Positions 36,706 through 47,673 of a stretch of 64,000 bases of DNA are shown here, piece after piece. Origin of the DNA: a bacterium (lineage in GTDB: Bacteria; Krumholzibacteriota; Krumholzibacteriia; JACNKJ01); contig JAAEPZ010000538.1 in assembly GCA_024231955.1 (NCBI GenBank), positions 435,340 through 499,339 on the forward strand, read 5' to 3'. A program made the position numbers and the translations under genes. Each line of letters begins with the position of its first letter. Position 1 is the stretch's first letter. Below the pieces are notes generated by a model. The model was given only the letters and a program-made list of their open reading frames with translations. It made no database searches and was not told the origin of the DNA.

Positions 36706-38457
36706 ATGTTTCTGTCGCTGGCCCTGGTCAGTCTGCTGCTCGTGGCCGCAGTCGGCGGCATGGGTTATCGGCAAACGCGCCAGGCTTTGATGAAGGAGGC
36801 GCGTGAGCATCTGGGTGAGGTGGCGCGTGCCCGTCGAGTCCGGCTGGAGATCTGGTTTGATGAACGACGAGAGGACATGGTTCTGCTCTCGGCGCACATA
36901 GACAAGACCCTGAGCGATGATCTGGAGACTGCCGCCGTGATCGAGGAGTTGCTGGACATGCAACTGGAGGCGCAGCCGGCCTATCGTCATTTCGCCGTAT
37001 TCGATACTGAGGGTTCGCTGATTGCGTCCGCCGGAGAACCTGTGCACGAAGAGTGCATGAACTCGGAATGCCCCGAGGTCAGAAACGCCATGACGTCCGG
37101 GGAGATCGTACTGGGGCGTTTCATCCTGGACGCCGATGACGAACCCACCATGCGGCTCAGCGCCCCCCTCAGCCTGGGTGACGAATTCACCGGAGCTCTG
37201 CTCGCCGTATTGCGCCCGGCCGCATCTATCAATCCCATACTTGCCGATACATCAGGTCTGGGACGCAGTGGCGAGACCTACCTCGTGGGTGCCGACATGA
37301 CCATGTTGACCCCGTCCCGCCATATGAATCACCCGCCTGCCCTGACCCACAAGATGCCGACGCCCGGCGTATTGGCCTGCCTCGAAAGCGGCAGCGGCAT
37401 CAGTCTGTATACGAGTTACATGGGTGAGGAGGTTCTGGGCGCCTACGAATGGCTGCCTGCGCAGCGTTGGGCGTTGATCGCCGAGATCCGGACCGCCGAA
37501 GCGTTCGCGCCGCTGCGGGGAATCGCACACAACACGGTACTGATCGCCTGCGTGGCTCTGCTCCTGGCGCTGCTGATCAGCATCACGTTGTCGCGGCGTC
37601 TATCCAGTCCGATCGGTCGTTTGGCGGTGGCCAGTGATCGTGTGGCTGCCGGTGACTGGTCCCCGCTCCCCGTCATCAGGGGGCCGGGCGAGATAGGCAT
37701 CCTGGCGCGCCATTTCGCAATCATGGTGGCATCGCTCTCCCGCTCGCGAACGGAACTTGAGCAATCGAGCCGGCAATTGGCCCAGGCCGAAAAGCTGGCG
37801 GAGATAGGCCGCCTGGCCGCGGGTCTGGTGCATGAGATGCGCAATCCCCTGGCCGCGATCAAGATGAATCTGAGTAACCTCACCCGCAGCCGCTCCCTGA
37901 CCGCCATCGAGGAGGAGCAGCTGCAGATCGCCTGCGAGGAGGGGGAGCGTCTCGAGCTGATGCTGGCCGAATTCCTCGCCTTCAGCCGCCCTGTCGAATT
38001 GAAGCGGGCACTGGTGAGCCTGGAATATCTGCTCGGTAAAGTCGAGCAGTTGACCGAGGCGGAGCGGGCTCCCCGCGGCATCCTCCTGAAGTTTGAGCGC
38101 CAGACGACGGATCGTGAGATCCTGGTCGATTCCGAGATGCTGCTCAGGGCGATCATCAACCTGGTGTACAATGCCGCCCAGGCGTTGCCGGAGAACGGGA
38201 TCGTCCGTCTGGTTGCGGGTGAGGATGAGGGCGCCCTGGTTATCGACATTGAGGATGAGGGGCGCGGCATGCCGCAGCCGGAACTCGACAGGATCTTTGA
38301 TCCTTTCTTCACGACGCGTGAGGGGGGAGTCGGTCTGGGAATCTGCAACGCGCGCAAGTATGTCGAACTGCATGAGGGGCGGCTGACGATCGCCAGCCGC
38401 GAGGGCGAGGGGACGCGAGCTCGCATCACACTGCCTGCGGGGGAGAGCAATGCTTGA
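36706..38457 (+). CDS. Sensor histidine kinase (periplasmic Cache-like sensor, HAMP, HisKA, HATPase_c)
   Basis: Two TM helices flank a ~280-aa periplasmic domain. H-box LVHEMRNPLAAI. N/G boxes LVYNAAQAL, DEGRGMP, GVGLGICNARKYVELHEG. Start is uncertain: ATG 36706 or TTG 36613. Confidence 0.8.
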   Translation: MFLSLALVSLLLVAAVGGMGYRQTRQALMKEAREHLGEVARARRVRLEIWFDERREDMVLLSAHIDKTLSDDLETAAVIEELLDMQLEAQPAYRHFAVFDTEGSLIASAGEPVHEECMNSECPEVRNAMTSGEIVLGRFILDADDEPTMRLSAPLSLGDEFTGALLAVLRPAASINPILADTSGLGRSGETYLVGADMTMLTPSRHMNHPPALTHKMPTPGVLACLESGSGISLYTSYMGEEVLGAYEWLPAQRWALIAEIRTAEAFAPLRGIAHNTVLIACVALLLALLISITLSRRLSSPIGRLAVASDRVAAGDWSPLPVIRGPGEIGILARHFAIMVASLSRSRTELEQSSRQLAQAEKLAEIGRLAAGLVHEMRNPLAAIKMNLSNLTRSRSLTAIEEEQLQIACEEGERLELMLAEFLAFSRPVELKRALVSLEYLLGKVEQLTEAERAPRGILLKFERQTTDREILVDSEMLLRAIINLVYNAAQALPENGIVRLVAGEDEGALVIDIEDEGRGMPQPELDRIFDPFFTTREGGVGLGICNARKYVELHEGRLTIASREGEGTRARITLPAGESNA

Positions 38458-46900: not shown

Positions 46901-47673
46901 AGAGCGAGGATACGTTCCTGGTCGGTTATGTGCTGTTCGACAAGCGGGCGGGCTATTCGGAGGTCGATGTGGTCGAGCAGGCTCGCGATCACCTGATGGC
47001 CAAATTGGCGGCAGGGGATTTCGAATTGCCCGCCGGAGTGAGTTACAGCTTCGCCGGAAGTTTCGAGAACCAGGTGCGGGCGGAGAGGAAGCTGATGATC
47101 GTTCTGCCCCTGGCGCTCGGGATCATCTTCATGATTCTCTATCTCCAGTTCCGTTCGGTGATGACCACCGGGCTCGTATTCTCCGGAATCAGCGTGGCCT
47201 GGGCCGGGGGGTTCCTTCTGATCTGGCTCTACTCTCAACCCTGGTTTCTCGATATCCATGTTTTCGGCGTACATCTGCGGGAGTTGTTTCAGGTGCATCC
47301 GATCAACCTCAGCGTAGCCGTGTGGGTGGGCTTCCTGGCGCTGTTCGGAATCGCCTCCGATGACGGCGTGCTCATGGGGACCTACCTGGATCAGGTTTTT
47401 CGGGGCAAGCAACCGGTTACGCGCAGGGAGATCAGAGAGTTGACCATTGCCGGCGCGAGGCGGAGAATTCAACCCGCGTTGATGACATCGGCCACGACGA
47501 TCCTGGCGCTGGTGCCGGTGTTGACCTCATCCGGCCGCGGTTCGGATATCATGGTGCCGATGGCAATCCCCACATTCGGGGGGATGATCGTCGTGTTGCT
47601 GACCGTTTTCACCTTCCCGACTCTCTATTGCGCAGTTCAGGAGAGACGCCTTCTCGGAAGAGGCGACCGCTAG
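43900..47673 (+). CDS. Heavy-metal-efflux RND transporter (CusA/CzcA family), unusually long at 1257 aa
   Basis: Twelve-TM RND topology, with conserved blocks throughout. A ~130-aa extra segment lies in a periplasmic loop (RYLRDDNGKRIKFRFDRRDQD...GIKVKGSDL). Confidence 0.85.
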   Translation: MSERNAVSDNSLLGRLVGFCLRNKLLVGLFVILMVVWGLMSAPFDWRLGGLPRNPVAVDAIPDIGENQQIVFTKWGGRSPQDIEDQISYPLTAALLGIPNVKSVRSSSMFGFSTIYVIFDDDVEFYWSRSRVLEKLASLPPGTLPAEVQPTLGPDATALGQVFWYTLEGRDAEGRPTGGWDLDELRSIQDWQVRYALMSAEGVSEVASVGGFLKEFQVDVDPDILLALNVDLEEVYRAIQQSNIDVGARSIEVNSVEYIVRGIGFLRNLAEIENTVIRTVNDLPLRVRDVATVSLGPALRRGALDKGGAEVVGGVVVVRYGENPLAVIGNVKEKIAEIAPGLPRRTLEDGTVSQVELIPFYDRTGLIQETLDTLGTALFDEVLVTIIVVIVMLLHLRSSLVIAGLLPLAVLMSFIAMKRFGVDANIVALSGIAIAIGTMVDMGIIVSENILKRLREAGDSEPSIAVVRRATVEVGSAVMTAVATTIISFLPVFTMEAAEGKLFGPLAFTKTFALLASIVVALVVIPPLAQTLFPLRFKLGRFGKRSAPPGKIIWIWNGLLVLAVGLLLTKHWQPLGTEIGLVRNFIFVAMLIGGLLLLFLLLQRAYPRLLAWCLDHKLLFLTLPVLLVLFGLLVWLGFDRVFGGLPDSMRGWRPTAALSRSFPGLGKEFMPSLDEGSYLLMPTTMPHASIGEALDVIQKQDMSIDAIPEVMSVVGKIGRVESPLDPAPVSMVETVINYHSRYLRDDNGKRIKFRFDRRDQDLVRSAAGEPLHAADGETYHARGRYARDAAGELIPDKRGRPFPLWRPALDPALNPGRMAWPGIRNPDDIWREILDAAAIPGTTSAPKLQPIATRLVMLQSGMRAPMGIKVKGSDLQDIERTGLELERLLKQVPGVEPSTVFADRIVGKPYLEIRIDREAIGRYGISLGKVQNVIETAIGGKQVTTVIARRERYPVRVRYQREVRDRLEDLERILVAAPGGRQIPLAQLAEISYVQGPQVIKSEDTFLVGYVLFDKRAGYSEVDVVEQARDHLMAKLAAGDFELPAGVSYSFAGSFENQVRAERKLMIVLPLALGIIFMILYLQFRSVMTTGLVFSGISVAWAGGFLLIWLYSQPWFLDIHVFGVHLRELFQVHPINLSVAVWVGFLALFGIASDDGVLMGTYLDQVFRGKQPVTRREIRELTIAGARRRIQPALMTSATTILALVPVLTSSGRGSDIMVPMAIPTFGGMIVVLLTVFTFPTLYCAVQERRLLGRGDR

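Follow-up and report, generated by a model that had tools for sequence, protein, structure and literature searches.

A putative sigma-54-dependent two-component system beside a CusCBA-type metal efflux operon in a probable member of the Krumholzibacteriota

A 64-kb stretch of bacterial DNA (contig JAAEPZ010000538.1, positions 435,340 to 499,339; hereafter the window, with coordinates counted from its first letter) was found to encode a two-component system directly followed by a heavy-metal efflux operon. On the + strand, six genes stand in a row, assigned with Pfam and NCBIfam to a sensor histidine kinase, an NtrC-type response regulator, a lipoprotein, an outer-membrane factor (OEP), a periplasmic adaptor and a resistance-nodulation-division (RND) pump (Table 1). 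We consider it likely (probability roughly 0.8) that the efflux operon is driven by a sigma-54-type (−24/−12) promoter at 40039–40053 under control of the adjacent regulator. A sigma-54 regulatory unit had been proposed in an earlier, sequence-only reading of the window; the regulator, a candidate enhancer and the promoter could all be located, and their wiring was conserved in relatives. The gene identities given in that reading (kinase, regulator, lipoprotein, TolC-, CusB- and CusA/CzcA-like proteins) also agreed with Pfam and NCBIfam, and in the case of the lipoprotein with its lipobox and cysteines.

Predicted promoter and candidate upstream activator sites

The promoter core TGGCACGGCTGTTGC at 40039–40053 (+) was the sole exact match to TGGCAC-N5-TTGC on both strands of the window, and shuffled windows led to an expectation of 0.15 exact matches per window. 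By our arithmetic, the chance of a random core match falling in the correctly oriented spacer between regulator and operon was roughly 4e-4. The spacer extends over 344 bp, from the regulator stop (39793) to the lipoprotein ATG (40138). The core lies 85 nt 5′ of this ATG and is directed at the lipoprotein gene, as expected from the earlier placement of the promoter between the regulator and efflux genes. Its GG and GC doublets are exactly one helical turn apart. Transcription would start near 40064–40066, with a leader of approximately 73 nt, and a ribosome-binding site (AAGAGG) is located at 40126–40131. A consensus scan of 36300–48700 detected no sigma-70-like promoter in the spacer that separates the regulator gene from the operon, and no terminator there either. 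An Rfam scan of 36000–48600, including the operon leader, gave zero family matches.

An inverted-repeat search of the spacer revealed a 33-bp dyad (GAAAGCCCTTTTCAAccaTTGAAAGGAGCTTTC), which splits into two adjacent 17-bp palindromes with a spacing of 20 bp. The sequence-only reading had recommended looking for inverted repeats within 39800–40000, and it is there, at 39920–39956, that these two palindromes, conserved in relatives, were located. Both resemble the palindrome consensus TTGAAAG-N3-CTTTCAA (17 bp, 14 scored positions). They were the only sites in the window matching this consensus at 12 or more of the 14 positions, with 0.07 expected from shuffles. As dyad-symmetric sites about 90–110 nt 5′ of the promoter, they fall within the 80–150 bp used as the criterion for binding sites of enhancer-binding proteins and are candidate upstream activator sites. 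The other inverted repeats of the spacer (I2–I5) were not conserved in relatives and were hence treated as chance. In the spacer alignment, no IHF-like or other conserved element was seen between enhancer and promoter.

Conservation in related loci

Ten related loci with DNA were compared, nine of them containing regulator homologues (53–73% identical; L081–L087, L112 and L113) and one, L108, retrieved by a DNA pattern scan. All ten encoded a HAMP histidine kinase and a sigma-54 regulator beside OEP, HMBD-adaptor and RND genes. The pump genes were located 3′ of the regulator in L081–L085, L108, L112 and L113, and 5′ of the kinase in L086 and L087. The same gene neighbourhood surrounded kinase P0130, whose sensor is just 39% identical. 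A dCache_1 match was recorded for most of the related kinases; it was weak in L087, and none was listed for L085, L086 and L112.

A −24/−12 element (GGCAC, GGCCC, GGTCC or GGCAT, followed by N6-TGC) with one or more palindromes upstream preceded the pump operon in nine of the ten loci (L081–L085, L087, L108, L112 and L113). The geometry was nearly constant in seven loci, with the centre of site 2 at 81–85 nt and that of site 1 at 103–106 nt from the −24 GG. The distances in the window, 92 and 112 nt, are about one helical turn longer, and in each of the two loci most distant from the window only one site is present, 116 nt from the −24 GG. When the seven closest spacers were aligned (the window and six loci), conservation was limited to the palindromes and the −24/−12 element. 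Across approximately 228 kb (the window and nine loci), nine out of ten consensus matches of at least 12/14 were situated in regulator-to-pump spacers (in L087, the spacer 5′ of the pump operon). The conserved palindromes and −24/−12 elements are, as read from these alignments, the phylogenetic footprint of an enhancer–promoter pair, and it is mainly because of this footprint that we accept sigma-54 dependence.

A metagenome scan with the pattern GAAAG-N3-CTTTCAA-N68-98-GGCACG-N5-TGC returned 23 loci, with L108 as the sole member of the same system. The pattern was too strict, because most palindrome sites are imperfect. The remaining loci were set aside: L092 and L095 represent a paralogue, and the others were pilin-type promoters, one sequence repeated across co-assemblies, or chance matches in coding sequences.

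Further features were noted in these loci. Tandem TTGAAAG-N3-CTTTCAA sites and TGGCACGgggcTTGC occur in L092 (1195–1814) and L095 (reverse strand). In L092 they come after a paralogue of the sigma-54 regulator (46% identical); L095 lacks that part. The downstream gene encodes a membrane protein with a zinc ribbon and a PspC domain, and no pump is present. L081 has a spacer of 994 bp in which the region 8062–8420 includes a second exact TGGCACgctggTTGC at 8406. This second TGGCACgctggTTGC comes after a seemingly frameshifted Cys-rich lipoprotein open reading frame (ORF) resembling the N-terminal half of the window lipoprotein. L112 contains a further 12/14 enhancer match at 12967, between the RND gene and a downstream gene for an HMBD protein, which may mark a second regulated promoter. 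In L113 (1–5991), directly 5′ of the module, defence-type genes were found that encode a HerA-like ATPase, CTD7, MC3, AAA_23/LmuB_C (Lamassu-like) and an HNH nuclease.

The regulator

The sigma-54 contact loop GAFTGA of the regulator is intact (residues 216–221; DNA 39095–39112). The protein also has D52 (in FLDLMLPD) and K102 in its REC domain, Walker A (GESGTGKE, 170–177) and Walker B (LFLDEIG, 237–243) motifs and a C-terminal HTH_8 domain of the Fis type. Pfam assigned PF00072, PF00158 (E = 7.7e-63), PF25601 and PF02954. The full length aligned with an NtrC-family regulator of Aquifex (4l4u, E = 1e-86), and the AAA+/DNA-binding structure of ZraR (1ojl) was matched at E = 5e-71. By these features, the regulator is a bona fide NtrC-type sigma-54 activator and not an OmpR-type protein. 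It scored below every NCBIfam equivalog cut-off (AtoC 376/714, NtrC 366/558.6, ZraR 314/760). A scan of the genome contigs with the regulator gave, as loci L001–L080, generic NtrC paralogues only (≤45% identity).

The pump, the lipoprotein and the transported metal

The RND pump passed the CusA/CzcA model TIGR00914 (734 bits, cut-off 701.45). Its nearest solved relative was CusA of E. coli (E = 1.8e-181), and the zinc pump ZneA was matched at 4e-119. Residues M681, M731 and M857 align with M573, M623 and M672 of CusA, which we take to be the Cu(I)/Ag(I)-binding methionines known from CusA structures. This methionine triad was kept in all six orthologues compared (L081, L083–L087). The motif in transmembrane segment (TM) 4 is AIGTMVDMGIIVSEN, as against AVGAMVDAAIVMIEN in CusA, and a CusA-like motif was also present in the six orthologues. 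By these sequence comparisons, the pump is CusA-like rather than CzcA-like.

With 1257 aa, the pump departs from the criterion of twelve TMs and about 1050 residues for this family and is a variant in length and topology. Two hydrophobic, TM-like segments between TM6 and TM7 (residues 549–570 and 578–607; 45544–45720) have no counterpart in E. coli CusA, nor does a stretch of about 80 aa inserted in the periplasmic part (residues 738–817; 46111–46350). The pump would accordingly be predicted to have 14 membrane helices, not 12. The inserts were common to L081, L083 and L085, and absent or much shorter in L084, L086 and L087.

In the relative L083, the co-directional string of genes 3′ of the regulator also encodes a cupredoxin and an HMA P-type ATPase; in L082 and L113, it encodes a P-type ATPase along with YHS/HMBD proteins. 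Because of the relatedness to CusA, the methionine triad, the TM4 motif and these copper-type neighbours, we favour Cu(I)/Ag(I) as the metal, and the signal perceived by the kinase is, on balance, probably Cu/Ag as well.

The first gene of the operon encodes a protein annotated as hypothetical (MCP4547720.1), which had no Pfam or NCBIfam match. Its lipobox is followed by a Cys-rich low-complexity stretch and a C-terminal half with HMBD-like motifs, YTCPGH...CPLH (degenerate) and GCTMCP...CILCGMKL. The C-terminal half aligned with small proteins of L081, L083 and L084, where they are encoded by the first operon gene, and of L087, where the gene is located 3′ of the RND gene. A PF19335 HMBD match was on record for the small proteins of L083 and L087. 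The lipoprotein may be a periplasmic metal-binding or chaperone partner, analogous but unrelated to CusF. The adaptor passed TIGR01730 (131.8, cut-off 94.9).

The sensor kinase

The kinase has two TM segments and a periplasmic dCache domain (residues ~58–300), followed by HAMP, HisKA (H-box HEMRNPL, 407–413) and HATPase_c domains. Its start codon, TTG at 36613, is uncertain, and the exact 614-aa product had no match in the protein collection. The sequence-only reading had described a large Cache-like periplasmic domain. With Pfam this was supported only below threshold (dCache_1, PF02743: 35.4 bits, gathering cut-off 45 bits), but structure modelling agreed with it. Homologues of the sensor were collected with an exhaustive HMMER search, after a word-indexed search had given 3 matches. 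An AlphaFold2 model based on an alignment of 24 sequences reached a pLDDT of 92.9, compared with 39 for a single-sequence model. The best Foldseek matches to the sensor model were the dCache ligand-binding domains of Mlp24, PctA and TlpC (probability 1.00, TM-score 0.6–0.8, maximum 0.79), with a sequence identity of 10–20% to the nearest solved dCache domains. The model thus confirmed a dCache fold, i.e. a double PAS-like domain on a long N-terminal helix.

The transmitter most resembles that of AtoS/ZraS, with a ZraS score below the equivalog cut-off (166/479). The kinase failed the heavy-metal sensor kinase model TIGR01386, which covers CusS, SilS, CopS and CzcS (92 bits, cut-off 292.55), and by its sequence is not a CusS/CzcS relative.

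Within the periplasmic part of the kinase, conservation is highest in the loop TMLTPSRHMNHPPALTHKMPTPGV, which is non-helical and confidently modelled. Within it, H240, H246 and M248 were invariant in eight locus orthologues, including those whose regulators are just 55–57% identical. Among 24 representatives (50% clustering), the three residues were present in 20, 18 and 18 sequences, respectively, and H246 and M248 were jointly absent from the same six divergent sequences. A His2Met set chemically suits Cu(I)/Ag(I), and the three residues are candidate ligands of these ions. That the His/His/Met loop is the metal-sensing site itself is a tentative proposal, which we consider more likely to be wrong than right. 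A cluster of cysteines in the sensor, HEECMNSEC, was rejected as a metal site because it is not conserved.

Proposed mechanism and alternatives

We propose that the membrane kinase senses a periplasmic signal, most likely Cu(I)/Ag(I), via its dCache domain and phosphorylates D52 of the regulator. The phosphorylated regulator would assemble on the two palindromes at 39920–39956, about 90–110 bp 5′ of the promoter, and open the sigma-54 closed complex with ATP and its GAFTGA loop. Transcription would then run through the genes of the lipoprotein, the CusC-like factor, the HMBD-CusB-like adaptor and the CusA-like pump, which would expel the metal from the periplasm. The DNA itself shows the parts and their order, the promoter and enhancer sequences, and how these are conserved and spaced in relatives. 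We infer sigma-54 dependence in vivo, occupancy of the palindromes by the regulator, which metal is involved and that the loop senses it directly.

Several observations weigh against parts of this scheme. The exact sigma-54 consensus match reported in the sequence-only reading holds for the core, which is exact and unique in the window, but the −11 base after TTGC is G, versus A/T in the extended consensus. The rpoN gene was not found among the ORFs scanned in the window. By eye, no sigma-54 promoter was seen 5′ of the kinase and regulator genes (36500–36612), and L086 had no recognisable promoter or palindrome 5′ of the pump genes. The HMBD motifs are of the Cys4, zinc-ribbon-like type and thus do not alone specify copper. 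Characterised dCache sensors usually bind their ligand in the membrane-distal module, while the conserved loop of the kinase is membrane-proximal, and its ‘HP’ part resembles what we take to be a general Cache sequence feature. For these two reasons, the loop could be structural.

The same sigma-54 wiring might respond to a signal other than Cu/Ag, either a divalent metal (Zn, Cd, Co or Pb) or general envelope stress as in ZraSR, and the pump may handle another cation. The models that the kinase transmitter and the regulator matched best were AtoS/ZraS and AtoC/NtrC/ZraR, which would fit such a signal, as would the zinc-ribbon-like Cys4 motifs of the HMBD. However, the ZraR and ZraS scores were far under the equivalog cut-offs, the methionine triad and TM4 motif of CusA are conserved, and the match to CusA was far above that to ZneA. 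The pump also lacks DFG-DGA-VEN, which we take to be the divalent-cation motif of Nies's classification, and HMA ATPase, cupredoxin and YHS proteins are encoded near the loci of relatives. We therefore regard a non-Cu/Ag signal as rather unlikely.

It is more improbable still that the dCache kinase senses a small organic ligand and that the pump is induced for some reason other than direct metal sensing. Small organic ligands are indeed what most characterised dCache domains bind, and all nearest solved folds are amino-acid- or small-molecule-binding domains of dCache chemoreceptors. The identity to these solved domains is just 10–20%, however, and the kinase is tied to Cu-type efflux genes in relatives down to 39% sensor identity. 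Moreover, the conserved residues are those of the His/His/Met loop and presumably not the distal-pocket residues with which characterised dCache sensors bind amino acids.

A chance −24/−12 match, with the operon served by a sigma-70-type promoter or by transcripts that read through from the regulator gene, is very improbable: 15 of 100 shuffled windows held one exact core match, and the consensus scan had shown no terminator ahead of the operon, but the position and orientation of the core are correct, the GAFTGA loop is intact, and an equivalent element is found in 9/10 loci at a fixed distance from the palindrome while the intervening DNA has diverged.

Comparison with known systems

Pumps controlled by CusRS/CzcRS-type systems are governed by OmpR-family regulators and sigma-70. 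The contrast with these systems drawn in the sequence-only reading was upheld, given the failed TIGR01386 match of the kinase and the regulator not being of the OmpR type. As in CusRS-cusCFBA of E. coli (and the CopRS, SilRS and CzcRS types), the two-component genes lie beside a CusCBA-type pump and the sensor of the kinase is periplasmic. The pump has the same methionine triad, and the operon includes a gene for a small metal-binding protein of the periplasm, CusF in E. coli and putatively the HMBD lipoprotein here. In contrast to CusRS, the activator here is an NtrC-type AAA+ protein, predicted to act with sigma-54, where CusRS has an OmpR-type protein acting with sigma-70; the kinase senses through a double Cache domain, the lipoprotein is unrelated to CusF, and the adaptor carries HMBD and DUF3347. 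The CusS sensor is a single PDC-like domain.

ZraSR-zraP of E. coli and Salmonella resembles the locus as a two-component system linked to a metal (Zn/Pb) whose NtrC-family regulator depends on sigma-54. The target of ZraSR, however, is the periplasmic protein ZraP, whereas the proposed target here is an efflux pump.

In Myxococcus xanthus, a multicopper oxidase and a P1B-type ATPase are induced in response to copper by CorSR, a two-component system that depends on sigma-54 (PMC3707914). Compared by description, CorSR-curA likewise combines a periplasm-sensing kinase with a REC/Sigma54_activat/HTH_8 regulator, encoded with its targets, and putative −24/−12 promoters (PMC3707914). It differs in that its targets are not an RND pump, no Cache domain is listed for CorS, and the CorR site is undefined (PMC3707914). 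Nla28 of M. xanthus binds a sigma-54-type promoter fragment of MXAN989, annotated as CusA/CusB, in gel shifts (PMC9765219). As proposed for the window, the cusBA-annotated operon is preceded by a sigma-54 promoter (PMC9765219). Nla28, unlike the regulator of the window, is induced by starvation and acts globally on many targets; it is not encoded beside the pump and has no metal signal (PMC9765219). Its half-site, CT(C/G)CG(C/G)AG, is unrelated to TTGAAAG (PMC9765219).

It was fair to call the sigma-54 arrangement less common, but CorSR, Nla28 at cusBA and ZraSR are partial precedents. A literature search, with incomplete coverage, found no dedicated sigma-54 two-component system encoded beside and driving a cusCBA-type operon, and likewise no description of a copper-sensing dCache kinase.

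Significance

Cus/Czc-type pumps are the textbook case of OmpR-family, sigma-70 control, and the locus and its relatives point to a conserved alternative with an enhancer-binding protein and sigma-54. Every component family is already known, as is the control of copper genes by sigma-54 activators. The novelty lies in their conserved combination, in the enhancer consensus and its geometry, and in a Cache sensor with a candidate metal-binding loop. Since copper control by CorSR and a sigma-54 promoter at cusBA (Nla28) had already been described in Myxococcus, the advance is incremental rather than conceptual.

As sigma-54 promoters are essentially silent without an activator, a costly envelope pump wired in this way should be switched on and off tightly. 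For a phylum without a cultured model, the locus offers testable elements, namely the 17-bp operator consensus, the promoter and the candidate metal-binding loop of the Cache domain. Possible uses are the prediction of regulons in metagenome-assembled genomes and a tight metal-inducible switch.

On a more speculative reading, the kinase could belong to a so far undescribed class of sensors for periplasmic Cu(I)/Ag(I), in which the membrane-proximal module of a double Cache domain would bind the metal by a His-x5-His-x-Met loop. Its partner would be a sigma-54 activator of its own, with tandem TTGAAAG-N3-CTTTCAA sites as targets. Such a system could be the counterpart of CusRS in Krumholzibacteriota and neighbouring uncultured lineages, and the HMBD lipoprotein might feed metal or feedback to the sensor. 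We advance this with reserve and think it doubtful that all of it applies.

Gene order and origin of the locus

The coordinates of the six genes and of the regulatory elements are compiled in Table 1. The lipoprotein and OEP genes are separated by a gap of 6 nt; overlaps amount to 4 nt between OEP and adaptor genes, 8 nt between adaptor and RND genes and 8 nt between kinase and regulator genes. The 4-nt overlap described earlier for all efflux gene junctions is therefore true of the OEP/adaptor junction only. The range previously given for the unit, 38450–47673, correctly begins at the regulator start but leaves out the kinase gene.

Table 1. Genes, regulatory elements and sensor loop of the locus, in window coordinates.
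Feature	Position	Strand	Remarks
Sensor histidine kinase	36613–38457	+	Pfam HAMP, HisKA, HATPase_c
Conserved periplasmic loop TMLTPSRHMNHPPALTHKMPTPGV	37300–37371	+	Kinase residues 230–253, membrane-proximal Cache module
NtrC-family sigma-54 enhancer-binding response regulator	38450–39793	+	Pfam REC, Sigma54_activat, AAA_lid_14, HTH_8
Candidate upstream activator site 1 CTGAAAGcccTTTTCAA	39920–39936		12/14 to TTGAAAG-N3-CTTTCAA; centre 112 nt 5′ of −24 GG
Candidate upstream activator site 2 TTGAAAGgagCTTTCCC	39940–39956		12/14 to TTGAAAG-N3-CTTTCAA; centre 92 nt 5′ of −24 GG
Sigma-54 (−24/−12) promoter core TGGCACggctgTTGC	40039–40053	+	GG 40040–40041, GC 40052–40053
Cys-rich lipoprotein, 180 aa, first operon gene	40138–40680	+	Lipobox LAGC, 13 Cys
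Outer-membrane factor, TolC/CusC-like, OEP family	40687–42072	+	PF02321, E = 3.6e-34
CusB-like periplasmic adaptor	42069–43907	+	N-terminal HMBD PF19335, HlyD_D23 PF16576, C-terminal DUF3347 PF11827
CusA-type heavy-metal RND pump, 1257 aa	43900–47673	+	TIGR00914

The regulator, lipoprotein and RND pump exactly matched the protein records MCP4547719, MCP4547720 and MCP4547723 of an NCBI metagenome-assembled genome. The best-matching named homologues of the regulator (63–70% identical) belong to Candidatus Krumholzibacteriota, and the host, an uncultured bacterium, is probably a member of this candidate phylum.

Other observations in the window

The region 28597–36532, 5′ of the kinase gene, begins with an oxidative-stress cluster on the − strand, with genes for a Fur-family regulator, a flavodiiron protein, a ferritin-like protein and two proteins of the rubrerythrin family. 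It is followed by two multihaem cytochrome genes (33525–36532, +), one of them NapC/NirT-like. Synteny in relatives did not tie these genes to the efflux unit. A terminator-like hairpin (36567–36590) is located after the cytochrome genes, directly before the kinase gene. The cytochrome genes were rejected as members of the unit, in view of this hairpin and of the other genes found at the same position in relatives. The rubrerythrins, flavodiiron protein and multihaem cytochromes of the window suggest that the host is an anaerobe.

Four proteins encoded on the − strand (48907–49497, 49520–50107, 52949–53521 and 59878–61071) share the C-terminal tag W-S-x-[IL]-[KR]-[SA]-L-Y, directly followed by the stop. 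Signal peptides were evident in three of the four, and two are close paralogues with near-identical signal peptides. Three had no Pfam or NCBIfam family, and for 59878–61071 only a generic Beta_helix match and a sub-threshold NosD match were obtained. The shared tag may be a lineage-specific sorting signal.

A single ORF of 825 aa (1816–4293) fuses a KAP-family P-loop NTPase domain to an FGE-sulfatase (formylglycine-generating-enzyme-like) domain. At 20200–24816 (−), a histidine kinase with an FHA domain adjoins a Ser/Thr protein kinase that carries a zf-HC2 motif at its N-terminus as well as a long TPR array.

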